From NCBI GenBank assembly GCA_965541615.1, contig CBEUCJ010000006.1:1-57675 (forward strand): a DNA stretch of 57,675 nucleotides, given 5' to 3'. The stretch is from an uncultured bacterium (GTDB lineage: Bacteria > Omnitrophota > Gorgyraeia > Duberdicusellales > CBEUCJ01). This document shows, one piece after another, positions 7,218 through 38,303 of the stretch. The position numbers and the translations under genes are program-made. Every line of letters begins with the position of its first letter. Within the stretch, counting starts at the first letter, position 1. Below the pieces are notes generated by a model that saw nothing but the letters and a program-made list of their open reading frames with translations, was not told the DNA's origin and searched no databases.

Positions 7218-8662
7218 AGGTACATGGTATACACTTTTATAATCACTACTTTCCATCTTTTCTGCTAACCATTCTAATCTAATAGGAAGCAAATTCAAGA
7301 TTTTATCACATAAATTAGGTTCTTTTTCTTTAAGGAGTTGATAAGGAGATTATTAAAGAATAAAAAGATAAGCATAACTTTTAATAAAGAAATCATCTTG
7401 ATCATCAAATCTTTCACATTCATAGAATTCATCTTCAATTATCTTATGAAAAGCCTCAATATCAGAATTAAATGTAGGACTTCTTGTGGGTATTCTTTGA
7501 TGTTCTATGTTATTGTTTCCTAAAACCTTCTCAAAAAATGATCTCTTTTTAAAGTTCTTCTTTACACTTCCTATAAACTCACTTCCATTATCTGTCTGAA
7601 AGATAATTTTCATGGTTTGAGGAGAGATATTGTATTTTTTAAGGTGTGCTATCACATACAATGCAAATAATCCTGCATAAAAAGAGTTATTTTCATTACT
7701 GTAAGCATAAAAACTTAATCCTGTAGATAATTCTCTAAAAGTATATTGATAACGAGGAAGATTCAGTCTTTTCATGTAAACCCAGTATTGAGGAATGTCA
7801 GATAAATCTTTTACATCAATCTGGTTATATTCAAAAACTTTATATTTTCTTTTAATTTCCTGTAATTCTTTCTTCTTTATATGCTTTCTTTTCTTTTTCT
7901 TTATCCTTCCATTTTGTCTTAACACTCTATTTATTGCTGTATGGGAATATTTTAGTTTATATCTTAATTTTAGTCTTTTTGCTCCCCAAGAAGGATGTTT
8001 ATCTCTTAAAGAAAGTATAATATTCTTCATCTTCCTTTGGCATTTTATGAGGTATTCTTTTAGGTTTTTTGGGTTTATTTTTTAGTCCTTCTAAGCCTTC
8101 TTCTCTGTATCTTCTTAAATACTTATAAACAGTCTTCCTTGTTGTCTTAAATTCTCTACTTGCCTTTGATACTCCAAATTCCAAAGCATATCTTACCATT
8201 TTAAGCCTATAATCAAAAAAGTTCATTATTCCTGAATATATGCTATAATAAGTCATAGCCCGACCCTCCTTTTTGGAGAGTGTTAAAAGAAAAAGAAGAT
8301 AATATTTTACTATAAACCCTCCAATCTGATAGGGGGTCGGGCTCAATGAATGTATTGTTCCTAATAAATTCTTTAAATCTTTGCCATTTTTTGTTTTCTT
8401 TTCCTAAAAATATCAGTTTGGTGTTTATTATATTAGTAGGCTGGTAAATTGAATGGTTTGTTTGGGAATTATTTAAATTTCCTTTTTTTCTTAATTTTTT
8501 CCTCAAAGATAGATTTACTTTAGAGGAAGAAGGAATCTTCTTTATTTTCTTGTTAGAAAAAACCTTTAATCTTGATGCGTGCTTTTTTAACCTTTTAAAT
8601 AGCTTCTTATCAAAAAATGATAGGGGTTTTAGGTGTATACCATGTGGATTTACTTTTCTTTT
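7212..8662 (-). mobile_element. IS481-like insertion sequence (about 1.45 kb)
   Basis: Perfect 13-bp terminal inverted repeat: ACATGGTATACAC at 7222-7234 and GTGTATACCATGT at 8633-8645. Encodes an HTH plus rve (DDE) transposase on the minus strand. Both ends recur at 53657-54228. Confidence 0.8.
7353..8256 (-). pseudogene. IS481-family DDE transposase, split by a +1 frameshift into an HTH part (7999..8256) and an rve part (7353..8030)
   Basis: N-terminal part: MTYYSIYSG...VSKASREFKTTRKTVYKYLRRYREEGLEGLKNKPKKPKRIPHK, with AGGAGGG 8 nt before ATG 8256. C-terminal part carries IDVKDL, FQTDNGSEF and DIEAFHKIIEDEF (D, D, E). The expected continuous reading ...KEDEE/IILSLRDKHPSWGAKRL needs a 1-nt correction near 8010-8030. 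Confidence 0.75.
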
Positions 8663-8733
8663 GAATGTAAAATAAATCTTTACATCCAAAGAAAATTCCG
8701 ATATAATTTTTTGCAAGTAATTTTTTGATAAAG

Positions 8734-9927
8734 ATGGAAGAAGAGGTAAGAGAAAGAGCTTTTAAGAATATACTTATCTTAGAAGCAATAAGAAGAAAAG
8801 GCCCTTTAAGCAAAACAGACATATCCAAACTCACAGGAATAAATCCTGTAACGATTTCCAATTACATAGAAAGATTTTTAGAAAGGAATTTAGTTTTGAA
8901 AAAAGAGTTAGATATCTCAAGAGGAGGAAGAAGACCTTTACTATTAGATTTAAATCCTCAGGCAGGATATGCTATAGGAGTAGGAATTAATCTTTTTGGC
9001 GTAGTGGGAGTAGTTACTGATTTAGAAGGTAAGATAGTTTATAGTACAAAATTTGAAGCTGAAAGAGTTTCTTTTAAAGATGTAGAAAATTTCATAGAAA
9101 AAATAATTGAAAAGATTATTGAAGATAATTTTCAAATAAAAGAAAAAATAAAAGGCATTGGCATAGGCATAGGAGGAGTTATAGATAAAGAGCAAGGTTT
9201 AATTAAATGGCCGGAAAAGAAAAATCAAGAATATGTTTATGTTCCTGTGCCAATCTCTTTAAAATCTATGGAAAGAAAATGGAACTTGCCTGTACTTATT
9301 GAGAATGATGCTACTGCTGCTTGCTTTGCTGAATACTGGTTAGGGTTACCTTTTGGCATAAAGAATGTTATTTATATGTTTTCAGGTGTCGGAGTAGGTT
9401 TTATATTAAATGGAGAGTTATATACAGGAACTACAGGTTGTGCAGGAGAAGTCTCTGTTTATAACTCTTTAGAAGATAATTTATTTAACTGCGAGTTTGC
9501 AAACAATTGTTTTATAAAAAGATGGGAAAAAGATTTAGGGATTTTAGAAGAAGTAAAAAAAAGATGCTACAAAAAGAGAATAAAGTATTTAGGAGAGAAA
9601 AAGGTAGAAGATTTAACTTTGAGAGAAGTCTTTGAATTAGCTAAAGAAGAAAGCTTAATACAGGAAGTTTTAGAGGAAGCAGGTAAAAGATTAGGAATAA
9701 AAATAGCTTTTTTAGTTAATTTATTGAATCCAGAGATAGTAGTAATTGGTGGAGGGATTGAGTATGCAGGTGAAATATTTATTAATTCTGTAAGGACTAC
9801 TGTAAAAGCTTGGACATTTGAAGAAATTAACAGACCTCTTAAGATAGTCCCCTCTTTTTTAGGAGAAGAGTCAGTAGCTTTAGGTGGAGCTTCGTTAGTT
9901 GTGAGGAAAGTATTTTCTAAACTATAA
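8734..9927 (+). CDS. ROK-family transcriptional regulator (NagC/XylR-like)
   Basis: N-terminal winged HTH (ILEAIRRKGPLSKTDISKLTGINPVTISNYIERFLERNLV) followed by a ROK sugar-kinase-like fold (ENDATAACFAEYW, GCAGE). The ORF is open from TTG 8725; ATG 8734 is preferred. Confidence 0.85.
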   Translation: MEEEVRERAFKNILILEAIRRKGPLSKTDISKLTGINPVTISNYIERFLERNLVLKKELDISRGGRRPLLLDLNPQAGYAIGVGINLFGVVGVVTDLEGKIVYSTKFEAERVSFKDVENFIEKIIEKIIEDNFQIKEKIKGIGIGIGGVIDKEQGLIKWPEKKNQEYVYVPVPISLKSMERKWNLPVLIENDATAACFAEYWLGLPFGIKNVIYMFSGVGVGFILNGELYTGTTGCAGEVSVYNSLEDNLFNCEFANNCFIKRWEKDLGILEEVKKRCYKKRIKYLGEKKVEDLTLREVFELAKEESLIQEVLEEAGKRLGIKIAFLVNLLNPEIVVIGGGIEYAGEIFINSVRTTVKAWTFEEINRPLKIVPSFLGEESVALGGASLVVRKVFSKL

Positions 9928-9950
9928 ACTATTTTAGGAGGAGGTAAGAT

Positions 9951-11108
9951 ATGGATGATAAAGGAAAAATATTAATTATAATTTTGTGTTTACTTTTAAT
10001 TGGAAGTGGATACTTGTCTTATTACTTTTACTCTGAGTTTAAAAAAATCTCCTTAGATTTTGAAATAGCTAAAAAAGAATGGAAGAAAGAAAAACAGGAA
10101 TATGTAAGAGAACTTTCTTCTTACAGAGAAAAGGAAAAAAATTACAGATTAAGATTATCAGCTATGGAAGAGGAGTTAGAAAAGATAAAGCAAGAGAAAA
10201 AAGAGTTAGAATACAAGTATGAGACAGTTTCAAGGGAAAAAGAGATTCTTTTAGAAAAGTTGAAAGAACTGAGAATAAAATTGAGGACAAAACCTTCTGT
10301 TAAAGAAGCAAAACCTAAAGAACCTATACCTAAAGATGTTTTTTGGGCAAAGGTTTTAAAAGAAAGAGCTACGTTTAAAGCAAAAGTAGAAGATTTAGAA
10401 GAAAAGATAAAGGAATTAAGGAAAGTTAAAGAGAAAATGGAAGAAGAGAAAAAGGCTTTAGAGTTTGAATTAAAAAATAAACAAAATAAGATAGCAGAGT
10501 TGCAAAGTAAAATAAAGTTCAACGAAAGGACGATAGAAATTTTATCTCAAGAATTATATAAAGAAAAAGAAGATAAAAGAAATTTAACTGAGCAAATAGA
10601 AAAGTTTAGAAAAGATAACTTGCAGTTAATGAGAGAGGTTAAAAGATTAGAGGGTGAAAAAGAAAGGTTAGAAGAATCTTTGAATTCTCTAAAAAAAGAA
10701 AATGCAGAACTTTCAAAGAGAATAGAGAAAATGCAGAGAGCAATTAAAGAGAAAACTGCCCAGTTGATGGAGTTAATAGAAAAGATAGAAGGAAAAAAAC
10801 CAAAAGCCCAAAAAAATGAAACAAAAGAAGTTCAACTTCCCCCAATAATTATTACTCCACAAACAGAAGCTTTAGCACAAAAAGGATTGGAGGCCAAAAT
10901 AATTGCAGTGAATACAGAAAATAATTTTGTAATAATAGATGCAGGTGAAAAACAAGGATTAACTGCAGGTATGAGGTTAGGAGTTTACCGAGAAGGTGTA
11001 AAGATTGCAGATTTAGAGGTGATAGAAACAAGAGCTGAAATTGCAGCCTGTGATATTTTGCAAGTAAAACCAGGTCTGGAGTTAAATGTTGGTGATGTAG
11101 TAAGGTGA
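9951..11108 (+). CDS. Membrane-anchored coiled-coil protein with a small C-terminal beta-rich domain (function unknown)
   Basis: One N-terminal TM segment (ILIIILCLLLIGSGYLSYYFY), about 270 aa of K/E-rich heptad-like sequence, and a C-terminal ~75-aa domain (AKIIAVNTENNFVIIDAGEKQGLTAGMRLGVY...GDVV). RBS GGAGG lies upstream of ATG 9951. Confidence 0.6.
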   Translation: MDDKGKILIIILCLLLIGSGYLSYYFYSEFKKISLDFEIAKKEWKKEKQEYVRELSSYREKEKNYRLRLSAMEEELEKIKQEKKELEYKYETVSREKEILLEKLKELRIKLRTKPSVKEAKPKEPIPKDVFWAKVLKERATFKAKVEDLEEKIKELRKVKEKMEEEKKALEFELKNKQNKIAELQSKIKFNERTIEILSQELYKEKEDKRNLTEQIEKFRKDNLQLMREVKRLEGEKERLEESLNSLKKENAELSKRIEKMQRAIKEKTAQLMELIEKIEGKKPKAQKNETKEVQLPPIIITPQTEALAQKGLEAKIIAVNTENNFVIIDAGEKQGLTAGMRLGVYREGVKIADLEVIETRAEIAACDILQVKPGLELNVGDVVR

Positions 11109-12106
11109 AAAGAATTACGATCACCGATGTTGCTAAGGAAGCAGGTGTCTCAATAGCTACAGTATCAAGAGTCTTAAATGATTCTCCTTATGTAAGAGAA
11201 GAGGTTAGAAAAAGAGTTTTAGATGCAATTAAAAAATTAAATTATCAGCCCTCCTTATTTGCTCGTAGTTTAGCAGGGAAAAAAGTAAAAGCTATAGGAT
11301 TGGTAATTCCTGCATATGAAGGTCTTTTTTACTCTTATTATGGAAATGAGATCATAAAAAATGTAGGTACTATCTGCACTGAGTTAGGATTTGATCTTTT
11401 TTTACACATAGCTTCACCTAAAAAAAGTATAAATTTTTCTCTTTTGCAAGGAGTTATATTTGCAGATATAATTGAGAATGAATACCAGTTAAAAGAATGC
11501 TTAGAAAGAGAGATTCCTTGTGTAGTAATAAACCATTCTTTTAAAGATTTAGATGTAAATTTTATTGCTATTGAAAATCAAAAAGCTTCATTTGAAGCAG
11601 TCTCTTATTTAATAAGTTTAGGGCATAAAAGGATAGCTCATATTGCAGGAGATTTAAGAACCCAATGTGCTCAGGAAAGATTAGAGGGTTATAAGAAGGC
11701 TTTAGAAAAAGCAAAAATAAAGATAGATGAAGATTTGATAAAAATAGGTAATTTTTCTAAGATTTTAGCCAGGCGCGCTACAGAAGAACTTTTAAGACTT
11801 AAAAACAGACCCACAGCTATTTTCTGTGCTTCTGATGAGATGGCTCAAGAATGTATGTATGTAATCCTTGAACATAGATTAAAGATTCCAGAAGATATTT
11901 CATTAATAGGATTTGATGATAATCCTTTATGTTTGATGACTCCAGTAGCACTTTCTACTGTAAGACAACCTTTGAGTGAGATGGCAAGAAAGAGTGTAGA
12001 GATTTTAAGTTCTATAATTTATGAAGAAAAGAAATCTCAATCAAAAAAGAAAATATATCTTCCTGCTAAGCTGATTATAAGAGATTCTTGCGATTTTGTT
12101 TCTTAG
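11105..12106 (+). CDS. LacI-family transcriptional regulator
   Basis: Canonical LacI/PurR HTH (ITITDVAKEAGVSIATVSRVLNDSPYVREEVRKRVLDAIKKLNYQPSLFARSL) plus a periplasmic-binding-protein-like core. GTGA overlap with the upstream gene. Confidence 0.9.
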   Translation: MKRITITDVAKEAGVSIATVSRVLNDSPYVREEVRKRVLDAIKKLNYQPSLFARSLAGKKVKAIGLVIPAYEGLFYSYYGNEIIKNVGTICTELGFDLFLHIASPKKSINFSLLQGVIFADIIENEYQLKECLEREIPCVVINHSFKDLDVNFIAIENQKASFEAVSYLISLGHKRIAHIAGDLRTQCAQERLEGYKKALEKAKIKIDEDLIKIGNFSKILARRATEELLRLKNRPTAIFCASDEMAQECMYVILEHRLKIPEDISLIGFDDNPLCLMTPVALSTVRQPLSEMARKSVEILSSIIYEEKKSQSKKKIYLPAKLIIRDSCDFVS

Positions 12107-12129: not shown

Positions 12130-12158
12130 TTGACTTTAAAAATTATGTAGTATACAAT
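12130..12158 (+). promoter_or_regulatory. Putative sigma70-type promoter for the GGDEF / pilus-ATPase operon
   Basis: TTGACT (12130-12135), a 17-nt spacer, then TACAAT (12153-12158), ending 14 nt before ATG 12172. Confidence 0.4.
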
Positions 12159-12171: not shown

Positions 12172-15100
12172 ATGGAAGAAAAAGAAAATTTAAAAGAAAG
12201 TATTATTACTATAGACCCTCTTACTAAACTCTACACACGTTATTTTATTTATCATAATTTCCCAAAAATTCTTGAAGAAGCAAAGAATTTTGAAAAAAAG
12301 ATAGCAGTAGTTATGTTAGATATAGATAATTTTAAAAGTGTAAATGACACTTATGGTCATCTAAAAGGAGATGAAGTATTAAAAAAAGTAGCTGAAGTAT
12401 TAAAAAGGTCTGTAAGAGAAAAAGATATTTTAGTAAGATATGCAGGAGATGAATTTTTGGTGATTCTTAATGATGTAGATGAGAGAATAAGTAAAAATGT
12501 GGCTCAAAGAATAATAAAAGAGATAAGTAAAATCTCTATTGAAAAGATAAAAATCACTGTAAGTGCAGGTTTAGCTATATATCCTCAAGATGGTCAAACT
12601 CTTCAAGATTTACTCGATAAAGCAGATAAGGCTTTGTATCTTTCTAAAGAAAAAGGTAAAAACAGATTATCTTTAGCTCAAGAAGTCATCCAAGAGGCAA
12701 TAAGTATACAGGAAGCTTTAAAACTATTTCCTACTAAAAGATTTATAAATAGAACCCAACAATTAGAGTTTCTTAAAAAAAGACTCTCTGATACTTTGGG
12801 TGAAAAAATGTCTTTAGTTATAATTAAAGGAAAAGTTGGTATAGGAAAGACAAGACTTCTTAATGAATTTGAAAGATATGCTAAAGATTTACAGATAATA
12901 TCTTTAAAAAACATAGCTCAAGAAAGAAAAATGCTTCAGCCTTATTATACTCTTTCACAAGGATTAGAAGAATTTTTGCAAAACAATGAAGTTTTTTTAT
13001 CTGCATTAACTGCATCTTTACCACCAAAAGAAGTGCAAGCATTAGCTAAGTTATTACCTTCTTTTAAAAAACTCATAAAAGAAAGCCTTCAAGAAGAAAC
13101 AGAGGAAACCAGATTAAATATTTTTAAAGGCTTTAGAGATATATTCGTTCAATTCTCACAGTTTCAAGGACTTTTATTGTGTTTTGATGATGTTCAGTGG
13201 TTAGATGAAGCAACTCTTAGATTATTGAGTTATTTTATCGATAATGAATTTATTAGAAAGATAATGGTATGTTGCACTCTATCAGAAGAGGAACTAAAAG
13301 AGCATGCTCCTTTTAAAAAGTTTTTGAAATCACCTAAAAAGAATATAAATTTTGACATAATAGAATTACCACCTTTTGGATTAGAAGAGACCAAAGAAAT
13401 GATTTGCTCCATTTTTCCACAGATAACTGCTTCTGAAGAATTTTACAATTCTATATTTGAAATTACAGGAGGAAACCCTCTGTTTATAGAAGAGATGCTT
13501 AAATATCTAATAGAGAGTGGAGTAATTTTTTATAAAGATAAAAGATGGCAGATTCACAAGATTTCAAAAGAAGAAATTCCCTCTTCTTTAGAAGAAGTTT
13601 TAAAAAGAAGATTTAGGAAATTAGATCCTGAGACAAAGGAATTTTTAGCACAAGCAGTAGTTATTGGAAAAGATTTCCAGTTAGATTTTTTAAGGCACAT
13701 GGTAAAAAAAGATTTAGGTTTTCTTTTTGAATTAATAGATAGAGCTAAGAGAAGAGGTTTTATTGAGGCAAAAAAATTAAATACTTTTGATTTCTTAAAT
13801 CCTTTTTTACAAAAAGTTATTTATGAAGAGCTGAGCCCTTCTGAAAAGATATCTTTGCATAAGAAAATAACCCAAGCTATAGAAGAAGTCTATAAAAAAG
13901 AACCTCCTCCTCAAGACTTTTTGCAAGAGTTAACTTATCATTATGAAAAAATAGGAGATACTTCTAAATTGCACAAATATAAAACTCAGATAGAAAAGGA
14001 GATTTCAAAAATATTTGATCCAACTGAGATAACTTCTTATCTAGAAGAAATGACGACTGAAATTTCTACTGAAGAGACACCAGCTGAAGTGAAGATAAGA
14101 AAAATAGAAAAGAAAATAAAAGAAGAAGACTTTGAAAAGATAGCAGAATTCTTAAGATGGGTTTCAGCTGCTTTAAGAAATATTATTCTATATCCTGAAG
14201 GAAATCAGATTAGAGAATATTCTATCAAAAGAGCACATTCTGGCTTGATAGATATCTTTAATATTAATAAAGAGATTTCAAGTTTAACTTTTAATGAGGT
14301 AGAAGGAATACTTATCGTAAATGGTCATAGATTGCCTTCTCATTATGAAAAAGCTTTTTTTATTCAAAACTTTATTTCAACTTTGATAGAAAAAGAGATA
14401 AAAGGAGTCCAGTTTTTACCTGAATTAGAAGAAAAAGAATTAAGCGCATTTTTAGTTTTACTTTCTCAAAAAAGAGAAGATTTGAAAAAGAAAGGAGGTA
14501 TAGGTCAAATTTTGAAAGAAAAAGGAATAAAGAATATAAAAGTAGATACAGCTCGTTATGAGAGAGTGGCTACTCAACAGAGATTCCAGCCATTAGAAGA
14601 AAATATTATGAAATTTGCTCTTTTAGATATTCTTTCAGGAGAAAAAAAACAAAAGAGCGCAGAGACTTTAATTACATGGTTAAGTAAGTCTCCTCAAATC
14701 TTAGCTCAAAAACTTACTGAAATAGCAAGAGATTTTGTTCTAAAAAAATCAGGTAAAGTTGATTTTATTGAAGAGGCAAAGGTTGTTAGTGATTTTATTC
14801 AAAAGGTAGAAAAAATAGTTTCTGAAAGAGCTCCTCATTTTAAGGAAAGTTTAGTTAAGATGGTCTCTCATTTAGATAGTACTCTAAAAAGTTATTTAAT
14901 TTCTCAAAAAAGCTCTCCTTTACAAAAAGAAAAAGAAATGTTAGAGAAAATAGTAAATAACCTTTCAAATGAAGAGATAGTAGAGATGATAATCAATGCT
15001 TCAAGAGCAGGGAAAGATTCTCTTTTGCATATGCGAGAACTTTTTGAAAAGTTTACTTCATTAAAAGGAAGAAGAGAAGAGATAGCTTCTCTTTTGAAAA

Positions 15101-16173
15101 AGAGATTAAGTAAAATAGGATTAAGTGAAGGTGAAATTTCTTTTGTTATTCAAAAAGATTATAGCACATTAAGTTTAAAAGAAAAGGTAGATACCCTTTT
15201 AAAACTTCCACCTTCAGGATACTCTTCTTTGGGAATAGAAAATATAAGAGAACTTTTAAATAATTTGATAAAGAGTTCTCAAAAAGAAGCTTTAGAAAAA
15301 ATTATAGATAAATTCTTGTTTTATTTAAAACAAAGTGAATCTTCAGAAAAAGAAACTGTTTTCACAGTCTTAAACAACTTTTTAGAATCTACACCTTTAG
15401 AAGAGACACAAATAGACCCATATATAGCCAAAATAATCTCATCTTTAAAAGATGAAATATTAAATTTGGAATCTCCTTTTTATGAACACACACTTAAAAT
15501 TTTAGATTTAGTTATAAAATGGTGTTATAAAAGTGCTGTTACTTCTTTAAGCAAGGAAAGATACATAATCCATTTAAGATTTTCTTATCTTAATGAGTTA
15601 GTTGAATGTATTCACAAAGCTTTAAATAAAGAAAGCACTAATTTTAAAGTAGAAAGAAATAAAGAAAAATTAAGATTATTTGTTTTTAAACTTTTAGATA
15701 GTGATTTAGTAGAGACATTAATCTTTGAATTAGCCGATCCCTCTTTAGAACATACAGAAATAATTGAAAATATATTAGTTAAGCTTGGAGAACCTGCATT
15801 GAAAAAAATAATCTCTGTTATTGTATCTAAAACTGACTTTACTTTTGAAGGTTACATTTATCGTAAAAAAATAAGTTATGTTTTAAAAAAGATGGGAAAA
15901 AAAGCAGCTCAGGAACTAAAAAGAGCTTTGCTTTCTGAAAAAGAAATTCCTAAATTAATTCGTTTAATCGAGATAGTAGGTTTCTTACAAGACAAAGATT
16001 TTGTAGATGTCTTAGCTGAATTTAGCAAACACCCTGATTATGAAGTCAAAAAAACAGTTATTTCAGCTTTAGCAGAAATAGGAGGTTCTGAAGCTGAGAA
16101 GATTCTTTCTGAAATGAGCAGAAGTTCTGATGTGAGAATTAGTAGGTTAGCTGCAGAAAAGATTAAAAAGTGA
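12172..16173 (+). CDS. Multidomain signalling protein: GGDEF (AGDEF variant) diguanylate cyclase domain, AAA_16/STAND-type ATPase, long helical region, C-terminal HEAT repeats
   Basis: GGDEF domain in aa ~15-170, with the active-site motif RYAGDEF at nt 12442-12456 and the I-site-like REKD five residues upstream. Walker A GKVGIGKT (nt 12829-12852). Walker B-like LLLCFDDVQWLDEATLRLL. C-terminal HEAT-like repeats (PDYEVKKTVISALAEIGG..., SSDVRISRLAAEKI). Confidence 0.8.
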   Translation: MEEKENLKESIITIDPLTKLYTRYFIYHNFPKILEEAKNFEKKIAVVMLDIDNFKSVNDTYGHLKGDEVLKKVAEVLKRSVREKDILVRYAGDEFLVILNDVDERISKNVAQRIIKEISKISIEKIKITVSAGLAIYPQDGQTLQDLLDKADKALYLSKEKGKNRLSLAQEVIQEAISIQEALKLFPTKRFINRTQQLEFLKKRLSDTLGEKMSLVIIKGKVGIGKTRLLNEFERYAKDLQIISLKNIAQERKMLQPYYTLSQGLEEFLQNNEVFLSALTASLPPKEVQALAKLLPSFKKLIKESLQEETEETRLNIFKGFRDIFVQFSQFQGLLLCFDDVQWLDEATLRLLSYFIDNEFIRKIMVCCTLSEEELKEHAPFKKFLKSPKKNINFDIIELPPFGLEETKEMICSIFPQITASEEFYNSIFEITGGNPLFIEEMLKYLIESGVIFYKDKRWQIHKISKEEIPSSLEEVLKRRFRKLDPETKEFLAQAVVIGKDFQLDFLRHMVKKDLGFLFELIDRAKRRGFIEAKKLNTFDFLNPFLQKVIYEELSPSEKISLHKKITQAIEEVYKKEPPPQDFLQELTYHYEKIGDTSKLHKYKTQIEKEISKIFDPTEITSYLEEMTTEISTEETPAEVKIRKIEKKIKEEDFEKIAEFLRWVSAALRNIILYPEGNQIREYSIKRAHSGLIDIFNINKEISSLTFNEVEGILIVNGHRLPSHYEKAFFIQNFISTLIEKEIKGVQFLPELEEKELSAFLVLLSQKREDLKKKGGIGQILKEKGIKNIKVDTARYERVATQQRFQPLEENIMKFALLDILSGEKKQKSAETLITWLSKSPQILAQKLTEIARDFVLKKSGKVDFIEEAKVVSDFIQKVEKIVSERAPHFKESLVKMVSHLDSTLKSYLISQKSSPLQKEKEMLEKIVNNLSNEEIVEMIINASRAGKDSLLHMRELFEKFTSLKGRREEIASLLKKRLSKIGLSEGEISFVIQKDYSTLSLKEKVDTLLKLPPSGYSSLGIENIRELLNNLIKSSQKEALEKIIDKFLFYLKQSESSEKETVFTVLNNFLESTPLEETQIDPYIAKIISSLKDEILNLESPFYEHTLKILDLVIKWCYKSAVTSLSKERYIIHLRFSYLNELVECIHKALNKESTNFKVERNKEKLRLFVFKLLDSDLVETLIFELADPSLEHTEIIENILVKLGEPALKKIISVIVSKTDFTFEGYIYRKKISYVLKKMGKKAAQELKRALLSEKEIPKLIRLIEIVGFLQDKDFVDVLAEFSKHPDYEVKKTVISALAEIGGSEAEKILSEMSRSSDVRISRLAAEKIKK

Positions 16174-16598
16174 GAAAAAAATTAAAATTAGGTGAGATTT
16201 TGTTGGAAGCAACTTCTTTAACCAAAGATCAATTAAAAGAAGCTCTCTATCTTCAAGCAAAAGAAAATATCTCTAAACCTTTAGGTGAGATTTTGGTAGA
16301 AAAAGGATATGTAAGTAAAGAAGATGTGGAGTTAGCTTTAGGAATTCAAGAAGGATACCCTTTTATTTCGGTAAAAAATTATAATTTAATTCCAGATGTA
16401 GTTAAAAAGGTTCCCAAAGAAGTAGCTTTAAGATATTTTATTTTGCCTTTGGATTTAATAGATAATATAATGACAGTAGCTGTACCTTCTATTTCTGAAG
16501 AGATTTTAAATAAAATTGAGGAGTTAGGTTTTAAAGTTAGAATTTTTTTAGGTAGGAAAGAAGAAATAAAAGAAGCTTTAAAAAAGTACTTTGACTGA
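16170..16598 (+). CDS. Stand-alone T2SSE_N / MshEN-type domain protein (predicted c-di-GMP receptor)
   Basis: Residues 6-29 (KLGEILLEATSLTKDQLKEALYLQ) and 37-60 (PLGEILVEKGYVSKEDVELALGIQ) match the tandem 24-residue MshEN motif. The remainder resembles the GspE/PilB N1 domain. GTGA overlap with the GGDEF gene. Confidence 0.75.
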   Translation: MRKKLKLGEILLEATSLTKDQLKEALYLQAKENISKPLGEILVEKGYVSKEDVELALGIQEGYPFISVKNYNLIPDVVKKVPKEVALRYFILPLDLIDNIMTVAVPSISEEILNKIEELGFKVRIFLGRKEEIKEALKKYFD

Positions 16599-17784
16599 AA
16601 GATTTAAACAAACTTCAATAGTAGATCTTACTCACCATCTTCTTGTTGAAGGAGTCAATAAAAGAGCAAGTGATATTTTAATTGAACCTTTAGATGATGA
16701 GTTACAAATAAGGTTTCGTATAGATGGTGTGCTTTCTAAATTTGCATCTTTGCCTTCTGAAATGCATTCAAAAATAATTACCAGAATAAAAGTAATGGCA
16801 GGTTTAGATATTTCTGAAAAAAGATTACCTCAAGATGGTAGTTTTAAAATGAAATTTCCAGGAAAAGAAGTAGATTTCAGAGTCTCAGTAGTTCCTTCAA
16901 GATTAGGAGAAAGAGTGGTCTTAAGAGTCTTGGATAAAGGAAGGCTTATTTTAGATATTAATAAATTAGGTTTAGATCCTTATTCTTTAACTTCTCTTAA
17001 AGAGAGTTTATTAAGACCTTATGGAATAATTTTAATATGTGGTCCTACAGGTTCTGGGAAGACTACAACTTTATATGCTTCCATAAAATATATTGATTCT
17101 GTAGAAAAAAATATTGTAACAGTAGAAGACCCTGTAGAATACCAACTCTATGGTATAAATCAGGTTCAGATAAATGAAGAGATAGGCTTAACTTTTCCTG
17201 CAGTTTTACGTTCTATTTTAAGACAAGACCCAGATGTAATCCTGGTAGGTGAAATTAGAGATTCTGAAACTGCTGAAATTGCTGTAAGAGCTGCTTTAAC
17301 AGGACATTTGGTTTTAAGCACTCTTCATACGACTACAGCCACAGGTGGAGTTATCAGACTGATAAATATGGGAATAGAACCTTATTTAATAAGTTCATCT
17401 TGCCTTTTAATAGCTTCGCAAAATTTAGTCAGATTATTATGTCCAGATTGTAAAAAGCCTCAACCTCTTCCAAAAGTAATTTCAGTTCAATTAGAGCAAT
17501 ATGGATACAAAAAAGAAGAGATCCCAGAAATAATTTACACAGCTAAAGGTTGCGAGAAATGTAATAATACTGGTTACTTTGGTAGAAGAGCTATTATGGA
17601 AGCTCTGATGTTATCTCCTGAAATTAGAGAATTAATAGAAAAAAATGCTCCTGAAAGAGAAATCAGAAAGAAAGCAAGGATGCAAGGAATGAGGAGCTTG
17701 AGAGAAAGAGGATATGAACTCTTAATGAAAGGTTTGACTTCTTTAGAGGAGGTAATAAGAGTAACTTCTGCTCAAGAAGTTTAA
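16591..17784 (+). CDS. PilB/GspE-family secretion ATPase lacking the N-terminal (N1/MshEN) domain
   Basis: Walker A GPTGSGKTT, Asp box, Walker B (DPDVILVGEIRD), His box (TGHLVLSTLHT) and the tetracysteine motif CPDC...GCEKC, which is typical of PilB/GspE and not of PilT. TTG start overlaps the stop of the MshEN ORF by 8 nt. Confidence 0.85.
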   Translation: MTERFKQTSIVDLTHHLLVEGVNKRASDILIEPLDDELQIRFRIDGVLSKFASLPSEMHSKIITRIKVMAGLDISEKRLPQDGSFKMKFPGKEVDFRVSVVPSRLGERVVLRVLDKGRLILDINKLGLDPYSLTSLKESLLRPYGIILICGPTGSGKTTTLYASIKYIDSVEKNIVTVEDPVEYQLYGINQVQINEEIGLTFPAVLRSILRQDPDVILVGEIRDSETAEIAVRAALTGHLVLSTLHTTTATGGVIRLINMGIEPYLISSSCLLIASQNLVRLLCPDCKKPQPLPKVISVQLEQYGYKKEEIPEIIYTAKGCEKCNNTGYFGRRAIMEALMLSPEIRELIEKNAPEREIRKKARMQGMRSLRERGYELLMKGLTSLEEVIRVTSAQEV

Positions 17785-17797: not shown

Positions 17798-19390
17798 ATG
17801 GAAAAGCATTTTTCTAAAAAAGATGAACTAAATTATATGCTTGAGATTTCAGAGAAGCTAAATATTCCTTTTATAAGAATCTCTCAATATCAAATCCCCA
17901 AAGAATTACTCAATCTCATTCCAGAAAAAATAGCCCGCAATTATAAAGTTATTCCTGTAGCTAAATTCGGTCCAGTACTCACTTTAGCTATGGTAAATCC
18001 TCTCAACTTAATGATTTTAGATGAGTTGCGTTATTTAATAGGATTAGAGATAACCCCTGTAGTAAGCACTTCTTCAGAAATCTTGGAAGCAATAGAAATT
18101 TATTATAAGCCTTCTTTTGAGATGAGTATAGAGAAGTTAAAAGAAGAAAGGACAAAAGAAATAACCATTGAGAAGACAACAGCTGAAGAAGAAGAGTTAG
18201 ATATCTATAAACTTACAGAGATGAGTTCACAAGAAAAGGTAGTAAACACCCTCAATAATATTATCTTGGAAGCTTTGAAATCTAAAGCGAGTGACATTCA
18301 TATAGAACCCTATCAAGAACATATCAGAATCCGTTACAGAATAGATGGTGTTTTGACAGAAAAAATGACTCTTCCAAAAGATATGCAAGATGCACTTTTA
18401 GCCAGGATAAAAATAATGTCTAAATTAGATATTACTCAAAGGAAAATTCCCCAAGATGGCAGATTTACTATAAATTTTGAAGACAGAAACATAGATTTTA
18501 GAGTTTCAATTTTACCTACATACTTTGGAGAAAAAGGAGTCTTAAGGATTTTAGATAAAGGAAGAATGAAGTTAGATTTAAGAAGTTTAGGTTTTTCTGA
18601 GCGTGCTTTTGAAATATACAAAGAAGCTATCTTTTCTCCTTTTGGTATCATATTAATCACAGGTCCTACAGGTTCTGGAAAATCAACTACTCTGTACTCT
18701 ATGCTAAATGAGTTAAATACACCTGAAAAAAACATAGTTACAATTGAAGATCCAATAGAATACCATCTGAAAGGTATTGCTCAAATCCAGATAAAGCCAG
18801 AAATCGGTTTAGACTTTGCTCAATGTTTAAGGAGTGTTTTAAGACAATCTCCAGATGTGATTATGGTAGGTGAGATAAGAGACTTTGAGACAGCAGACAT
18901 TGCTATGAAATCTGCTCTAACAGGACATTTGGTTCTAACTACCCTTCACACAAATGATGCTCCATCAGCTATAACCAGATTGTTAGATATGGGAATAGAG
19001 CCTTTTTTGATAGCAGGTGCTTTAAGAATGGTTTCAGCTCAAAGATTGGTAAGAAAGTTATGTGATTACTGTAAAGAGAGTTATATCATAGATAAAAGGA
19101 GTTTAGAAAAATTTGGTATCTTTGTTGATAAAGAAGAAGTCGTTTTATACAGAGCTACTGGTTGTAATGAGTGTGATAGAGTAGGTTATAAAGGAAGAGA
19201 AGCTATAGTAGAAGCGTTTTTAGTAGATGATACTTTAAGAGAGATGATAATTCAGAGAGCCCCTCTCTTAGATATTAAAAAGTATCTGAAATCAACAGGA
19301 ATGCATACTTTACGTGAAGATGGTTTTCTGAAAGCTTTAAAAGGAGCTACTTCCTTAGAAGAAGTAATAAGAGTAACTGCCCAATTTTGA
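17798..19390 (+). CDS. pilB: Full-length PilB/GspE-family type IV pilus / type II secretion ATPase
   Basis: T2SSE_N-like N-domain without the MshEN 24-mer motifs. Walker A GPTGSGKST, DPDVIMVGEIRD, TGHLVLTTLHT, and CDYC...GCNEC. A GspE (T2SS) assignment cannot be excluded. Confidence 0.85.
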   Translation: MEKHFSKKDELNYMLEISEKLNIPFIRISQYQIPKELLNLIPEKIARNYKVIPVAKFGPVLTLAMVNPLNLMILDELRYLIGLEITPVVSTSSEILEAIEIYYKPSFEMSIEKLKEERTKEITIEKTTAEEEELDIYKLTEMSSQEKVVNTLNNIILEALKSKASDIHIEPYQEHIRIRYRIDGVLTEKMTLPKDMQDALLARIKIMSKLDITQRKIPQDGRFTINFEDRNIDFRVSILPTYFGEKGVLRILDKGRMKLDLRSLGFSERAFEIYKEAIFSPFGIILITGPTGSGKSTTLYSMLNELNTPEKNIVTIEDPIEYHLKGIAQIQIKPEIGLDFAQCLRSVLRQSPDVIMVGEIRDFETADIAMKSALTGHLVLTTLHTNDAPSAITRLLDMGIEPFLIAGALRMVSAQRLVRKLCDYCKESYIIDKRSLEKFGIFVDKEEVVLYRATGCNECDRVGYKGREAIVEAFLVDDTLREMIIQRAPLLDIKKYLKSTGMHTLREDGFLKALKGATSLEEVIRVTAQF

Positions 19391-19446: not shown

Positions 19447-21342
19447 ATGAAACATAAATATCTTTTTTTTATTTTTTTATTCTTCTTTTTGAAATATGGA
19501 TTCTCTCAAGATCCAATATCTCCTAAAATTAGAGTAGAAGGTGATACTCAAATAAAGTTTGGAACTTTAAGATTAAAACCTGTAAAAGACACCCCTCCTG
19601 CTTCTCCTCAATTAGGAGATTTGTATTTTGATGGGACTTATCTTTATACTTGGGATGGCTCAAATTGGGTGCAAGTTTCAGAAGAAGGTTCACTTTTCTT
19701 TAATGATGCAGATAATTCCTTATATTTTTATGATGGAGCTCAGTGGCAAAAATTAGGAGAAGGTGAAGGTCCTAAAAAAATAGCTACAAGGATAGTAGCA
19801 GCATCTGACTCTCCAGATAAAAGCAGAGCAGACTATATCTGTGATGGAACAGATGACCAAGAAGAAATAAATCAAGCAATAATAGATGTGTATTTTAATC
19901 AAAATAATCCAGGTTTGGGAGGTTCAGTTTATTTATTAGCTGGAACTTACAATATAAGTGATAATACATCTATTACTTACACAAAACCAGATGGCACTAC
20001 TTTAACTTATTCAACTCCAGGCATCGTTTTATACTCTAATATCTCCTTAATAGGTGAAGGAGCAGGCACAGTTTTAAAAGCAGTTTCTGGCACAGCTTAC
20101 GATATAATAAATGTAATTGGCTCTTCTACAGAGTTTCTCAAAGGTGCTTTTATTTCCCAATTAAGAGTAGATGGAAATAAAGCTAATGTGTCAGGTACAC
20201 ACAATGGAATTTATTTTAAGTATGCTCAGAATTCAAAAATTACAAAAGTATGGATTGAAAATTGTTCAGGTTCTGCAATAAAATTGGAAAACTCTTCTTA
20301 TAATATTTTCTCTAAAAGTTTTCTATTAAATTGCTCAAAAGGAATTTACTTTGATTCAAGTTCTAATAACATCATTGCAAAAAATATAATTGAAAATATA
20401 CCTGAAGGAGCTATATACTTTGCTTCAACTTCAGATAGCAATTATAACATAATAGAAAGCAATATTATTTACAATTTAACAGGAACAGTTACTACAGGAG
20501 CTATAAGATTACATGGTGATTACAATATTTTTTTGGCAAACCATATTACAAGTTCTAAAATAGGAGGCGTTTTAATAGAAGGTGATTACAATCTTTTATA
20601 TTCAAATCTATTAAGTGGTTTAGAAAATTTCGGAGTCAATTTATCTGGTTCTACTTACAATCTTTTATCTTCAAACCACATTCATTTAGGTTCTTCTAAT
20701 TCAGCTTATGGGATAAAAATAGAGTCGAGTTCAGATTCTAATCTTTTAGTGGGAAATTATATTTGGGACCAAGAAGATGATTTTGCTTCACTTTCAATCC
20801 TTGATTCAGATAAACTCCTCATAGCTTCCAATTACATACTTTATCCTGGAATCCCTGATTATGGGATTGAAATAGATAGTCTTTCAAAAGATAACTATAT
20901 TGTAGGAAATCAAATAATAGATAGCAGCACAAATTCTCCAGGAAATATAAAGGACAATGGCACAAATACTCAGTATACTCAAAAAGAAAAAATGACAATA
21001 GAAAAGTATACTTTTCCTTATCCATCTATTTCTTCTCCTTATAAATTAGATACTTTTGTCAATGTACGGGCTCACAGTTATATAGCTTTTAATATTAACA
21101 GAGCAGGCACTTATACTGTTTATTTAACGACAGGCAAATCTCCAGGTGACATACTTATCTTAGAGAACAAGACCAATAATAAAAATAACTTTATTAGAGT
21201 CTATGATTATACTGATCCTGGTTCTCCTTCAGGAAATGCAATAAATTTAAGTGTTTCTTACATAGATTTAGGCAAAAATGATGTTTTAAAACTGATCTGG
21301 AATGGAACTCACTGGATTGAATTAGAACATATTGATAACTAA
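19447..21342 (+). CDS. Secreted right-handed parallel beta-helix (PbH1/NosD-like) repeat protein, paralog 1 of 4
   Basis: Signal peptide ending GFS/QD. N-terminal motif duplicated (GDLYFDGTYLYTWDGSNWVQV and NSLYFYDGAQWQKL). DYICDGTDDQEEINQAI and GGSVYLLAGTYN. Many N.I..N-type beta-helix turns. Conserved ~130-aa C-terminal module ending LKLIWNGTHWIELEHIDN. Confidence 0.75.
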   Translation: MKHKYLFFIFLFFFLKYGFSQDPISPKIRVEGDTQIKFGTLRLKPVKDTPPASPQLGDLYFDGTYLYTWDGSNWVQVSEEGSLFFNDADNSLYFYDGAQWQKLGEGEGPKKIATRIVAASDSPDKSRADYICDGTDDQEEINQAIIDVYFNQNNPGLGGSVYLLAGTYNISDNTSITYTKPDGTTLTYSTPGIVLYSNISLIGEGAGTVLKAVSGTAYDIINVIGSSTEFLKGAFISQLRVDGNKANVSGTHNGIYFKYAQNSKITKVWIENCSGSAIKLENSSYNIFSKSFLLNCSKGIYFDSSSNNIIAKNIIENIPEGAIYFASTSDSNYNIIESNIIYNLTGTVTTGAIRLHGDYNIFLANHITSSKIGGVLIEGDYNLLYSNLLSGLENFGVNLSGSTYNLLSSNHIHLGSSNSAYGIKIESSSDSNLLVGNYIWDQEDDFASLSILDSDKLLIASNYILYPGIPDYGIEIDSLSKDNYIVGNQIIDSSTNSPGNIKDNGTNTQYTQKEKMTIEKYTFPYPSISSPYKLDTFVNVRAHSYIAFNINRAGTYTVYLTTGKSPGDILILENKTNNKNNFIRVYDYTDPGSPSGNAINLSVSYIDLGKNDVLKLIWNGTHWIELEHIDN

Positions 21343-21344
21343 AA

Positions 21345-38302: not shown

Positions 38303-38303
38303 A

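Follow-up and report, generated by a model that had tools for sequence, protein, structure and literature searches.

In the V. cholerae MSHA system and in related PilB/PilF ATPases, c-di-GMP is bound by an MshEN domain that carries two tandem 24-residue motifs, and this binding regulates the PilB-family ATPase and, through it, pilus assembly (PMC5013675, PMC7096442, PMC11731258). The published motifs are separated by a spacer of 5 residues, and MshEN was reported to be specific for c-di-GMP, with no binding of c-di-AMP and weaker binding of cGAMP (PMC5013675). Local c-di-GMP modules whose partners interact physically were described for DgcJ-NfrB in E. coli (PMC8669469) and for FimX-PilZ-PilB in Xanthomonas (PMC8389850); in the latter, a small adaptor connects the c-di-GMP protein to PilB.

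Cyclases fused to STAND modules are found in other settings. In the TOMM kinase/cyclase fusions (TIGR03903) a nucleotide cyclase at the N-terminus precedes a STAND NOD of the AAA_16 type and helical repeats. Rv0386 and other mycobacterial proteins of the class III adenylyl cyclase-STAND-TPR-LuxR type share this cyclase-NOD-repeat layout. Proteins of these types carry a class III (cAMP/cGMP) cyclase and TPR repeats, many ending in a LuxR DNA-binding domain, and we know of none that is tied to pilus genes. More generally, in Apaf-1, MalT and PH0952 (6mfv) an NBD-HD-WHD fold precedes a repeat sensor, under a scheme in which an N-terminal effector is activated by oligomerisation.

Here we analyze a 57,675-nucleotide stretch of DNA ("the window") from an Omnitrophota bacterium of hydrothermal-vent metagenomes, in which a 1333-aa ORF with an ATG start (12172-16173; forward strand, as are all domains, motifs, pilus genes and the promoter-like site located below) combines a GGDEF domain, a STAND NOD and an alpha-solenoid. 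We consider it rather probable that the encoded protein is a cytoplasmic diguanylate cyclase gated by its STAND module, and that its product goes to a dedicated MshEN receptor in control of type IV pilus (MSHA/T2SS-like) ATPases.

Domain architecture and family spread

The ORF is present exactly as proposed in a first-pass annotation of this DNA, and the cyclase-AAA_16/STAND-repeat architecture proposed there was borne out by profile searches and by two high-confidence AlphaFold models, covering residues 1-650 (pLDDT 89.4, pTM 0.81) and 601-1333 (pLDDT 88.7). The GGDEF (diguanylate cyclase) domain lies at the extreme N-terminus (residues 13-165; 12208-12666; Pfam PF00990, E=8.7e-44; TIGR00254, E=1.9e-45), and its model superposes on solved DGC domains with an rmsd of 1.4-1.8 A. 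The STAND NOD (residues about 190-595; 12739-13956), as delimited by Pfam, TIGR03903 and fold, consists of a P-loop domain (AAA_16, residues 190-358, E=4.9e-15), a helical domain and a winged-helix domain.

The NOD part of TIGR03903 (positions 480-882) matches residues 188-592 with E=1.3e-26, which supports the likeness to cyclase-AAA_16-repeat signalling proteins suggested earlier. Since the whole-protein score of 92.8 bits is far under the cutoff of 705.75, the protein is not a TIGR03903 member; it also differs from the TIGR03903 and Rv0386 types in having GGDEF rather than a class III cyclase and a HEAT/ARM-like solenoid rather than TPR repeats. The NOD model aligns with Apaf-1 (3sfz, 1z6t) and with the STAND-TPR protein PH0952 over 430-460 columns. 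Unlike in Apaf-1, MalT and PH0952, the effector here is a GGDEF cyclase and the sensor is a solenoid with an alpha/beta insert, and sequence similarity to these proteins is detectable in the P-loop region only.

Judging from alignments of homologues, the STAND switch looks intact. In the Walker A motif GKVGIGKT (residues 220-227; 12829-12852) and directly after it, G220, G223, G225, K226, [ST]227 and R228 are kept in 109-120 of 120 homologues. The Walker B motif reads LLLCFDD (hhhhDD; residues 334-340; 13171-13191), and in this region D339 is found in 118/120, D340 in 96/120 and D345 in 117/120 homologues. In the STAND helical domain, the GxP motif reads GGNPLF (13468-13485), with G434, P436 and F438 invariant in an 18-sequence alignment (A1).

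The region after AAA_16 had been described as about 950 aa of helical or HEAT repeats, a description that fits only its C-terminal portion: the helical solenoid covers residues about 796-1333, whereas the helical and winged-helix domains of the NOD take up residues about 360-595, and residues about 650-795 form an alpha/beta subdomain. The HEAT/ARM-like solenoid (14557-16170) is all-helical in the AF2 model and has Foldseek matches to PP2A-A, RanBP5 (importin), CAND1, beta-catenin and alphaRep (E=3e-6 to 1e-4), with Pfam HEAT_2 restricted to residues 1253-1329 (15928-16158; E=4.6e-8). The alpha/beta subdomain (14119-14556) is family-specific, is modeled with pLDDT >90 across most of its length, and contains the conserved motifs LYPxG, EVExxLxxNG and IKxIxF, with Y674, P675, N717 and E756 invariant in alignment A1. 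Its sequence matched nothing in Pfam or the PDB, and it is a candidate for a signal-input or partner-binding module. The protein as a whole is soluble, as a Kyte-Doolittle scan found no TM-like segment in it (highest 19-residue mean, 1.3).

The full architecture was found again in more than 800 database proteins, and the family is present throughout the uncultured phylum Omnitrophota. The protein is not a singleton oddity but a member of a large family, and its features are far beyond chance.

Active site of the GGDEF domain

The active-site motif reads AGDEF (residues 91-95; 12442-12456), in the place given by the first-pass annotation, which noted, correctly, that this variant is still active in some enzymes. 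All 120 of the nearest homologues have RYAGDEF, which constitutes a family signature; when relatives were searched with a query lacking the GGDEF domain, AGDEF appeared in 86 of the 112 that bear a GGDEF domain, the published background being ~1.6%. The metal-binding Asp residues, the guanine-contacting Asn58 and the specificity residue Asp67 lie in DIDNFKSVNDTYGHLKGD (12319-12372), and D50, D52, K55, N58, D59, G62, H63, G66 and D67 are unchanged in 120/120 homologues. These alignments make catalytic competence of the AGDEF domain plausible, in line with the V. cholerae enzyme VCA0965, which has both an AGDEF active site and an RxxD I-site, synthesizes c-di-GMP in vitro, and tolerates Ala, Gly, Met and His alike at the first motif position (PMC3974145). 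In VCA0965, too, AGDEF is tied to one partner domain, with AG(D/E)EF in 62/68 homologues of its N-terminal region (PMC3974145). The two proteins are, however, homologous in the GGDEF domain only: in VCA0965 the N-terminal domain is a membrane domain of five helices and the GGDEF domain is C-terminal, a STAND or solenoid module is absent, and no pilus-locus context has been reported.

The inhibitory (I) site of the RxxD type is present as REKD (residues 82-85; 12415-12426), separated from AGDEF by five residues (ILVRY); this confirms the earlier reading and corresponds to the canonical spacing. Among the 120 homologues, R82 is found in 90 (Lys in 22) and D85 in 111. RxxD is kept in all type A loci and is lost in L085 and L086, two relatives without an own-type adjacent MshEN or PilZ receptor gene; in distant relatives the I-site is gone and AGDEF is retained.

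The residue at the specificity position is Asp in the window protein (GHLKGD), in all 120 homologues and in the canonical T. maritima DGC, and Ser in the Geobacter Hypr enzyme 6d9m (GHLVGS). Since Asp67 is present and conserved, the product is expected to be c-di-GMP rather than cGAMP, and the GGDEF-STAND-solenoid protein most likely synthesizes c-di-GMP.

A stand-alone MshEN protein in a pilus locus

Directly downstream lies a gene for a 142-aa stand-alone MshEN protein (16170-16598; Pfam MshEN, E=1.3e-10), a putative dedicated c-di-GMP receptor. The GTGA coupling of the two genes noted in the first reading was seen again: the TGA stop of the cyclase gene (16171-16173) overlaps the GTG start of the MshEN gene (16170-16172), which is the sole start codon upstream of the MshEN binding motif, and the N-terminus VRKKLKLG has its counterpart in MRKKIKLG of the closest orthologue. 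The protein also matches NF053729, an NCBIfam domain for the c-di-GMP motif (48.3 bits; cutoff 38), and the MshEN part of NfrB (E=1.9e-14). Comparison with the published motif revealed two 24-residue c-di-GMP-binding motifs in tandem, KLGEILLEATSLTKDQLKEALYLQ and PLGEILVEKGYVSKEDVELALGIQ (16185-16349), carried by no other protein in the window. Motif 2 fully fits the relaxed published motif, and motif 1 departs even from the relaxed form at two positions, 10 (T) and 11 (S). In 25/25 stand-alone MshEN proteins, both motifs keep their core of hydrophobic residues, Gly and Gln. The 142-aa protein is thus predicted to bind c-di-GMP. It differs from MshE in having Lys or Pro where the motifs usually begin with Arg, and in the 7-residue spacer of the window's subgroup.

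The next gene overlaps the MshEN gene by 8 nt and encodes a 397-aa PilB/GspE-type ATPase core (16591-17784; T2SSE, E=1e-132) that is devoid of an N-terminal MshEN domain and spans PilB profile positions 178-563 only. The two genes are a split MshE-like ATPase; the split is kept in L081-L083 and L087-L090, with intergenic gaps in some. A full-length PilB-type ATPase of 530 aa follows (17798-19390; TIGR02538, E=1e-180, with the alignment beginning at profile position 49), in whose N-terminal domain neither an NF053729 search nor reading of the sequence revealed the two c-di-GMP-binding motifs. The same pilus system includes a PilC/GspF platform protein (28167-29366; Pfam T2SSF, E=1e-62), whose gene adjoins the cyclase-MshEN-ATPase block in most related loci. 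Encoded at 29363-31286 are a Kelch-propeller protein with a prepilin-type N-terminus (29363-30712; Kelch repeats, E=4e-46) and a pilin (30753-31286; N_methyl, E=3.6e-7), their N-termini reading KSFTLMEL/KSFTLMEM. Toxin-antitoxin-like genes are also found a few kb downstream of the cyclase gene (AbiEii-like, 21345-21854; HEPN and nucleotidyltransferase, 27380-28101).

Of 25 distinct loci that could be evaluated (25-68% identity), 22 have a gene for a stand-alone MshEN protein of 142-158 aa directly behind the cyclase gene, with gaps of -8 to +599 nt (<=30 nt in 16 loci), and in a 23rd locus a PilZ gene takes its place. The operon link proposed in the first-pass annotation is real, and this conservation makes it much stronger than the window sequence by itself could. 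Since the remaining two (L086 and L093) have no adjacent receptor gene, the pairing is not obligatory. The pair is flanked by PilB-type ATPases and PilC in both gene orders. Such conserved gene order is evidence of functional linkage, from which neither signalling direction nor physical contact follows. In contrast to MshE, the MshEN domain is here a separate protein, next to an ATPase without an N-domain, and the operon also includes the cyclase gene. The proposed arrangement resembles DgcJ-NfrB and FimX-PilZ-PilB in assigning a specific GGDEF protein and a specific MshEN or PilZ receptor to one machine; however, the cyclases of those modules use membrane or REC/PAS sensors whereas the window cyclase has a STAND switch.

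Proposed mechanism and alternative readings

Because the cyclase gene is nearly always directly before those of the MshEN protein and the pilus motor ATPases, the cyclase looks like a dedicated pilus on-switch. The input, which might be a ligand or a partner protein, would be received by the conserved alpha/beta insert together with the C-terminal solenoid, and would release the STAND NOD for ATP binding and oligomerisation. Catalysis by GGDEF domains needs two GTP-loaded domains. As the GGDEF domain here lies at the extreme N-terminus and has no dimerising stalk of the usual kind, NOD oligomerisation would bring these domains together, so that the cyclase, if active as its residues suggest, may be gated by induced proximity, by analogy with other STAND proteins. 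The c-di-GMP made, its level capped through product inhibition at the RxxD I-site, would be captured by the co-translated 142-aa MshEN protein, which may in turn act on the adjacent ATPase by supplying the missing regulatory N-domain in trans, and thereby switch pilus assembly.

One alternative, which we regard as unlikely though deserving of attention, is that the AGDEF domain is a catalytically dead sensor that binds GTP in its A-site or c-di-GMP in its I-site, so that the protein would serve the pilus machinery as a receptor or scaffold and would not itself supply c-di-GMP. Across the whole family, Gly is indeed substituted at the first position of GGDEF, the I-site is kept in the window and most close relatives, and long solenoids are typical of scaffolds; moreover, AGDEF domains are not always active, since the one in P. 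aeruginosa NbdA is called degenerate. However, receptor-type degenerate GGDEF domains usually lack catalytic residues, whereas here the residues needed for catalysis, and not just for binding, are all invariant across 25-100% identity. The same loci offer an example of such degeneracy in a TM-HAMP-GAF protein, whose motif reads SDSEF and whose DxD/ND region is degraded. AGDEF is, besides, proven compatible with synthesis (PMC3974145), and conservation is lower in the I-site (R82 in 90/120) than in the active site (120/120), with distant members having lost the former but kept AGDEF. It is far less probable still that AGDEF marks an altered specificity, with 3',3'-cGAMP or c-di-AMP as product, as in Hypr GGDEF enzymes. 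By sequence, the Hypr enzyme 6d9m is the nearest of the solved structures (40% identity, E=1e-31), but the Asp shared with the T. maritima cyclase in place of the Hypr Ser makes the "other cyclic dinucleotide" of the first-pass annotation unlikely, and the receptor next door is of a type reported specific for c-di-GMP (PMC5013675).

Bacterial NLR-like defence proteins likewise combine an effector at the N-terminus with a STAND NOD and repeats at the C-terminus, and the protein might accordingly be an Avs/NLR-like antiphage sensor, whose solenoid recognizes a phage protein and whose cyclase raises an alarm nucleotide; the AbiEii-like, HEPN and nucleotidyltransferase genes downstream would fit such a role. 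We give this reading very little credence. None of 5027 PADLOC models matched, c-di-GMP would be a housekeeping messenger with its receptor encoded alongside, and pilus neighbors constant over 25-68% identity and two gene orders fit a vertically inherited core gene rather than a defence island. The cyclase gene adjoins the dcw cluster, and this chromosomal place together with the lack of a PADLOC match speaks against an origin in mobile elements or defence. Taken as a functional analogy to immune sensors, the looser likeness to STAND sensors with N-terminal effectors drawn at first reading thus finds no support.

In the 65-nt gap between a lacI-family gene and the cyclase gene, a promoter-like site, TTGACT-17-TACAAT (12130-12158), has 10/12 matches and the joint top score in the scanned region, where 22 such sites were observed vs 31 expected in shuffles; it is a weak candidate promoter. 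None of the RNA runs searched contained the cyclase sequence. In databases, the GGDEF-STAND-solenoid family is currently labeled "diguanylate cyclase" only.

The cyclase domain and its AGDEF signature

The first-pass annotation had placed a 1333-aa protein combining a GGDEF domain, a STAND ATPase and helical repeats at 12172..16173 on the plus strand, and we recovered this ORF there with its ATG start. Residues 13-165 form the GGDEF domain (Pfam PF00990, E=8.7e-44; 149.6 bits against a cutoff of 23.8), which also exceeds the cutoff of the cyclase model TIGR00254 (154.6 vs 37.4 bits), and whose structural model superposes on solved diguanylate cyclase (DGC) domains with an rmsd of 1.4-1.8 A. 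The active-site motif annotated at nucleotides 12442-12456 is indeed AGDEF, with Ala in place of the first Gly and Gly-Asp-Glu-Phe kept, a departure from the strict GG(D/E)EF. The product-inhibition site (I-site, RxxD) was likewise found as described, with REKD at residues 82-85 (12415-12426) followed by the five residues ILVRY and then AGDEF. This spacing fits that of I-site-regulated DGCs, and product inhibition is predicted. Residues D50, D52, N58, D67, E94 and K159 are all present and are invariant in 120/120 homologues; their roles, which we take to be those seen in the PleD and WspR structures, are those of metal Asp, guanine-contacting Asn/Asp and transition-state Lys. The usual arrangement in DGCs is a sensor domain at the N-terminus that switches the enzyme by way of a dimeric helical stalk; the present GGDEF domain has no such stalk, being preceded by about 12 residues only. 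The protein contains no hydrophobic segment of transmembrane quality and is therefore taken to be cytoplasmic.

The annotation had stated that AGDEF is still active in some enzymes, and the literature bears this out: like the present cyclase, Vibrio cholerae VCA0965 combines AGDEF with RxxD, and it raised c-di-GMP in vivo and synthesised it in vitro (PMC3974145). The first motif position tolerates Ala, Gly, Met and His alike (PMC3974145). As for the product, the nearest solved structure by sequence is a Geobacter Hypr GGDEF enzyme that makes cGAMP (6d9m), and this best PDB match prompted us to consider a Hypr/cGAMP identity. Around the base-specificity position the cyclase reads GHLKGD and the canonical Thermotoga maritima cyclase GHLSGD, as compared to GHLVGS in 6d9m, and on the Asp vs Ser difference we rejected the Hypr identity. 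The specificity Asp is invariant across the family, and since it is shared with the T. maritima cyclase, the predicted product is c-di-GMP. Against activity of the domain, at least one AGDEF domain, that of NbdA, has been termed degenerate in an abstract.

A word-indexed search retrieved at least 836 relatives of the cyclase. The best 120 of these, at 25-68% identity, are with few exceptions full-length proteins (about 1270-1520 aa). Those bearing a name are mostly "diguanylate cyclase" of Candidatus Omnitrophota, and Planctomycetota and Thermodesulfobacteriota contribute a few; "diguanylate cyclase" is the only label the databases give this family. In the alignment of the 120 homologues RYAGDEF is invariant, as are D50, D52, K55, N58, D59, G62, H63, G66, D67, K159 and other catalytic and substrate-binding positions of the GGDEF domain. 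Conservation extends to the Walker A residues and to D339, D340 and D345. The I-site is looser, with R82 in 90 of the 120 (Lys in 22) and D85 in 111.

Because a word-indexed search may favour shared words such as YAGDEF, we repeated the search without the GGDEF domain, scanning 1.84 billion representatives by index-free HMMER with residues 181-1333 only as the query. This retrieved 590 representatives at E<1e-30, and 112 of the best 150 carry an N-terminal GGDEF domain. The motif in these 112 is AGDEF in 86, GGDEF in 16 and degenerate in a few, counts that are not phylogenetically independent and show a signature rather than a probability; set against the 1.56% of AG(D/E)EF among GGDEF domains generally (PMC3974145), they therefore point to AGDEF as a heritable signature of the GGDEF-AAA_16 clade and not as decay. 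RYAGDEF can be used as a practical family marker, and it warns against labelling AGDEF domains "degenerate". A scan of a genome collection with the full-length alignment gave, among the matches listed, nearly all generic GGDEF proteins, with the relevant ones in three loci (L001-L003).

The STAND module and the C-terminal solenoid

The assignment of an AAA_16/STAND module was supported by a Pfam match at residues 190-358 (AAA_16, E=4.9e-15; 56.9 bits against a cutoff of 32.6), and NCBIfam agrees with Pfam on the domains of the cyclase. Walker A (GKVGIGKT, 12829-12852) and Walker B (LLLCFDD, 13171-13191) lie where they had been located, and both are conserved. A parallel to cyclase-AAA_16-repeat proteins had also been drawn, and residues 188-592 do match the nucleotide-binding oligomerisation domain (NOD) part of NCBIfam TIGR03903 (E=1.3e-26). 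Proteins of this layout with class III cyclases are known from the mycobacterial Rv0386 type; TIGR03903 proteins share the layout of the present protein but carry a class III cyclase. Membership in the TIGR03903 family of TOMM kinase/cyclase fusions was rejected (92.8 bits against a cutoff of 705.75), as the NOD part alone matches.

The approximately 400 residues following the GGDEF domain align over 430-460 columns (E about 1e-10) with Apaf-1 (3sfz, 1z6t) and with 6mfv, a STAND-TPR protein from an archaeon; residues ~190-595 therefore constitute a complete STAND NOD. Its modelled parts are a P-loop domain, a helical domain, in which the GxP motif (GGNPLF) is conserved, and a winged helix, and it is predicted to act as an ATP switch. 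Two AlphaFold2 predictions were made from a 70-sequence family alignment, covering residues 1-650 (pLDDT 89.4, pTM 0.81) and residues 601-1333 (pLDDT 88.7). In these models residues ~650-795 form a compact alpha/beta subdomain and residues ~796-1333 an all-helical solenoid. The "~950 aa of helical/HEAT repeats" of the first-pass annotation therefore stands for about 540 aa of solenoid, the remainder being the arm of the STAND module and the insert domain.

Within the C-terminal two-thirds of the protein, conservation is highest in the alpha/beta subdomain, with Y674, P675, N717 and E756 invariant, and no Pfam family or PDB sequence matched residues ~650-795. More broadly, residues 590-1250 gave only noise in Pfam (E<=10) and when their profile was searched against PDB sequences. 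A weak PFK match (E=0.008, under the cutoff) was discarded. The folds closest to the solenoid are PP2A-A, importins, CAND1, beta-catenin and the designed alphaRep (E=3e-6 to 1e-4), and Pfam places HEAT_2 at residues 1253-1329 (E=4.6e-8). By modelled fold and HEAT_2 profile, the C-terminal repeat sensor is thus predicted to be a HEAT/ARM-like solenoid.

Pairing with MshEN genes in pilus loci

The cyclase gene is translationally coupled to its downstream neighbour as had been claimed, its stop codon overlapping in GTGA (16170-16173) the GTG start of a 142-aa protein (16170..16598) with an MshEN domain, the c-di-GMP-binding domain of PilB-family ATPases. Next come a 397-aa PilB/GspE ATPase core that has no N-terminal domain (16591..17784) and a full PilB of 530 aa (17798..19390). 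A site upstream of the cyclase gene reached the joint best promoter-like score in the scanned region; it carries little weight because, at 29% G+C, shuffled versions of this DNA yield such sites no less often.

The published MshEN site consists of two 24-residue motifs, RLGxxhhxxGhhxxxxLxxxLxxQ, joined by a five-residue link, and binds its ligand mainly by hydrophobic contacts: changing Arg9 affected affinity less than fivefold, whereas hydrophobic changes cost more than tenfold (PMC5013675). In all of the 25 stand-alone MshEN proteins the hG..hh...h...h..Q core of both motifs is kept, with the leading Arg replaced by Lys (or by Pro, Leu and others). The 142-aa protein lies above the Pfam MshEN cutoff and scores 48.3 bits against a cutoff of 38 with the c-di-GMP-motif model NF053729. 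Its motifs are seven residues apart; motif 2 fits the relaxed published motif, and motif 1 departs at positions 10 and 11, with Thr-Ser where Gly/Ala/Ser and then a hydrophobic residue are expected. Judging from its motifs, c-di-GMP binding by this protein is likely but not certain. The full-length PilB begins past the motif region and the ATPase core lacks any N-domain; the 142-aa protein is therefore the sole carrier of c-di-GMP motifs in the block.

Across 16170-17784 a PilB/MshE-type ATPase is split into the MshEN protein and the core, encoded in different frames with an 8-nt overlap. The same split recurs in seven related loci from other genomes and metagenomes (L081-L083, L087-L090), where the two genes overlap by 8-13 nt or leave a true gap of 9-71 nt (9, 57 and 71). 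This recurrence with varied overlaps and real gaps ruled out a frameshifted pilB pseudogene, and argues for a genuine two-gene arrangement.

To place the pair in a wider context, we collected six homologue loci by exact-protein look-up and 21 more by a metagenome scan with a 7-sequence alignment of the cyclase sensor region, and annotated them by phmmer with the proteins of the window. A stand-alone MshEN gene (142-158 aa) lies immediately 3' of the cyclase gene in 22 of the 25 distinct loci with a visible 3' flank, at distances of -8 to +599 nt (30 nt or less in 16 loci). In the complete genome CP070780.1 (L085) a PilZ gene (Pfam E=1e-6) takes the MshEN position. No adjacent receptor gene was found in the other two loci, a Planctomycetota MAG with PilB 4 kb off (L086) and one where the cyclase adjoins lpxC/lpxA/lpxI (L093). 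The PilZ-domain gene of CP070780.1 encodes 131 aa (13530-13925), the receptor type being swapped at the same position; the cyclase of that locus is a shorter member of 1174 aa that has lost RxxD.

Two gene orders were observed. In type A, comprising the window and its relatives (29-68% identity), the order is cyclase, MshEN, ATPase core, full PilB and PilC; in type B (25-28% identity) it is PilB, PilB, cyclase, MshEN and PilC. The motif spacer is seven residues in most type A MshEN proteins and five in most of type B. The unit constant across both orders is the cyclase with the MshEN-only gene, amid genes for pilus ATPases and platform. Some type B loci contain, further upstream, a TM-HAMP-GAF protein whose GGDEF domain is truly degenerate (SDSEF), and then a second MshEN-only gene. 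This extra pair precedes the two PilB genes in L096 (2629-4531), L100 (2631-4533) and L105 (2728-4583), and its TM-HAMP-GAF protein reads RFSDSEF with a degraded DxD/ND region.

Proposed mechanism and genomic setting

Apoptosis, plant and animal immunity and phage defence are the settings for which STAND switches are best known, and in these the switches turn on their effectors through induced proximity. Induced proximity is exactly what a GGDEF domain needs, since two such domains must meet, and the cyclase here appears to be the N-terminal effector of a STAND ATPase. The protein has an intact-looking AGDEF site, an I-site, an intact-looking STAND NOD and a solenoid with an insert domain, and its gene shows tight, deeply conserved linkage to those of an MshEN-only protein and of pilus ATPases. 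On this basis we somewhat favour a path leading from a signal through the STAND module, c-di-GMP and MshEN to the pilus ATPase. The C-terminal region would receive a cue, upon which the NOD would bind ATP and oligomerise, bringing the stalk-less N-terminal GGDEF domains together for c-di-GMP synthesis, with RxxD capping the output. The co-expressed MshEN protein would then bind c-di-GMP and act on the adjacent ATPase, switching pilus assembly; in type A loci it would be the detached regulatory domain of that ATPase.

The strongest competing explanation holds that the AGDEF domain is dead and the protein a nucleotide-sensing receptor or scaffold. We consider this unlikely, since conservation in the family is stronger at the active site than at the I-site, and the truly degenerate GGDEF proteins of the same loci look quite different. 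Synthesis of another dinucleotide is very improbable, with both Asp67 and the MshEN partner speaking against it. There is equally little chance that the protein is an Avs-like sensor of antiphage defence: its gene lies in conserved core synteny, and neither it nor the MshEN protein matched a PADLOC-DB 2.0 family at E<=0.001, on which account defence was rejected as the main explanation.

The path from STAND module to pilus ATPase is built from parts of known kinds (GGDEF cyclase, I-site, STAND NOD, HEAT/ARM solenoid, MshEN receptor and PilB ATPase), and local modules have been published, with DgcJ-NfrB pairing a DGC with MshEN and others joining GGDEF/EAL, PilZ and PilB. A full-text literature search found no description of a STAND switch with a GGDEF domain for its effector, of the invariant RYAGDEF signature of the family, or of its near-constant pairing with stand-alone MshEN in Omnitrophota pilus loci. 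The sequences thus offer a clear and testable hypothesis of some mechanistic novelty in an uncultured organism; if confirmed, it would represent a new regulatory logic for c-di-GMP signalling and a new output class for STAND proteins. The near-obligatory pairing of cyclase, MshEN and pilus ATPase provides a clean case in which hard-wired local c-di-GMP signalling can be tested, and a first handle on the control of type IV pili or T2SS-like systems in uncultured Omnitrophota. More tentatively, the cyclase, the MshEN protein and the truncated ATPase might form one physical complex, in which the solenoid would hold receptor and motor, the STAND module would sense a contact or cargo cue (e.g. prey or host attachment, or pilus load), and c-di-GMP would be private, non-diffusing within a single machine. 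Such a complex, which we rather doubt, would be the first case of a second-messenger cyclase activated by STAND-type induced proximity.

Omnitrophota are ultra-small and possibly predatory or epibiotic, with a lifestyle suspected to involve attachment to other cells or predation on them. The window (29% G+C) comes from the chromosome of an Omnitrophota bacterium: every best match of its MraY that carries a name is from Omnitrophota/Omnitrophica (53-60% identity). Near-identical sequence occurs in hydrothermal-vent metagenomes; a search for RNA runs with the window sequence found none, and no c-di-GMP riboswitch or other RNA was detected in the window at Rfam gathering thresholds. Upstream of the cyclase lie a sugar ABC transporter, glycoside hydrolases, an IS remnant and a trio of ROK, coiled-coil and LacI genes, and downstream of the pilus ATPases follow four secreted beta-helix/depolymerase-like proteins interspersed with toxin-antitoxin-like genes, and then PilC, a Kelch protein with a prepilin N-terminus, a pilin and the dcw cell-wall cluster. 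Because these neighbours include polysaccharide import and hydrolases, depolymerase-like proteins and a Kelch-bearing pilin, they suggest, but do not prove, a surface- or prey-related function. Giant genes of Omnitrophota have been described with T2SS-like loci, PilZ genes and carbohydrate import nearby (bioRxiv 10.1101/2023.11.21.568195).

The trio (8725-12106) adjoins the pilus/cyclase locus and consists of a ROK-family regulator/kinase, a 385-aa membrane-anchored coiled-coil protein with SMC-like matches only, and a LacI-family regulator. It recurs in L081 (6539-9928) and L084 (20188-23644), in relatives with a cyclase identity of only 27%, which suggests a conserved regulatory link from sugar sensing to this locus. 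On the minus strand between the glycoside hydrolase and ROK genes (7353-8716) are three short ORFs, one with IS630/IS481-type transposase HTH domains; in the syntenic L081 the two flanking genes are adjacent, so this segment is probably an IS remnant inserted in the window genome.

Between pilB and pilC (19447-27320) lie the four beta-helix paralogues of ~580-630 aa, with signal-peptide-like N-termini and all related to one another by phmmer; the first two match right-handed beta-helix families (NosD/Beta_helix) and the last three "phage depolymerase C-terminal". Possibly they are secreted proteins, tied to the pilus system, that degrade polysaccharide or act in adhesion; similar genes come after the pilus genes in L081, L082 and L087. 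Among them are an AbiEii/DUF6036-like nucleotidyltransferase just under the Pfam cutoffs (21345-21854) and a HEPN gene (E=7e-27) that overlaps one for a minimal nucleotidyltransferase (27380-28101). Between pilC and the pilin gene, a 449-aa protein (29363-30712; KSFTLMELLIASTILILIL) combines a prepilin-type N-terminus with five Kelch repeats (beta-propeller); with this propeller domain it is a candidate minor pilin or tip protein. The dcw cluster (32170-47722) comprises mraZ, rsmH, a PBP gene, murE, murF, mraY, murD, ftsW, murG, murC, murB, ddl, ftsQ and ftsA. No ftsZ follows ftsA within the window; directly after ftsA come AddA/AddB-like helicase-nuclease genes.
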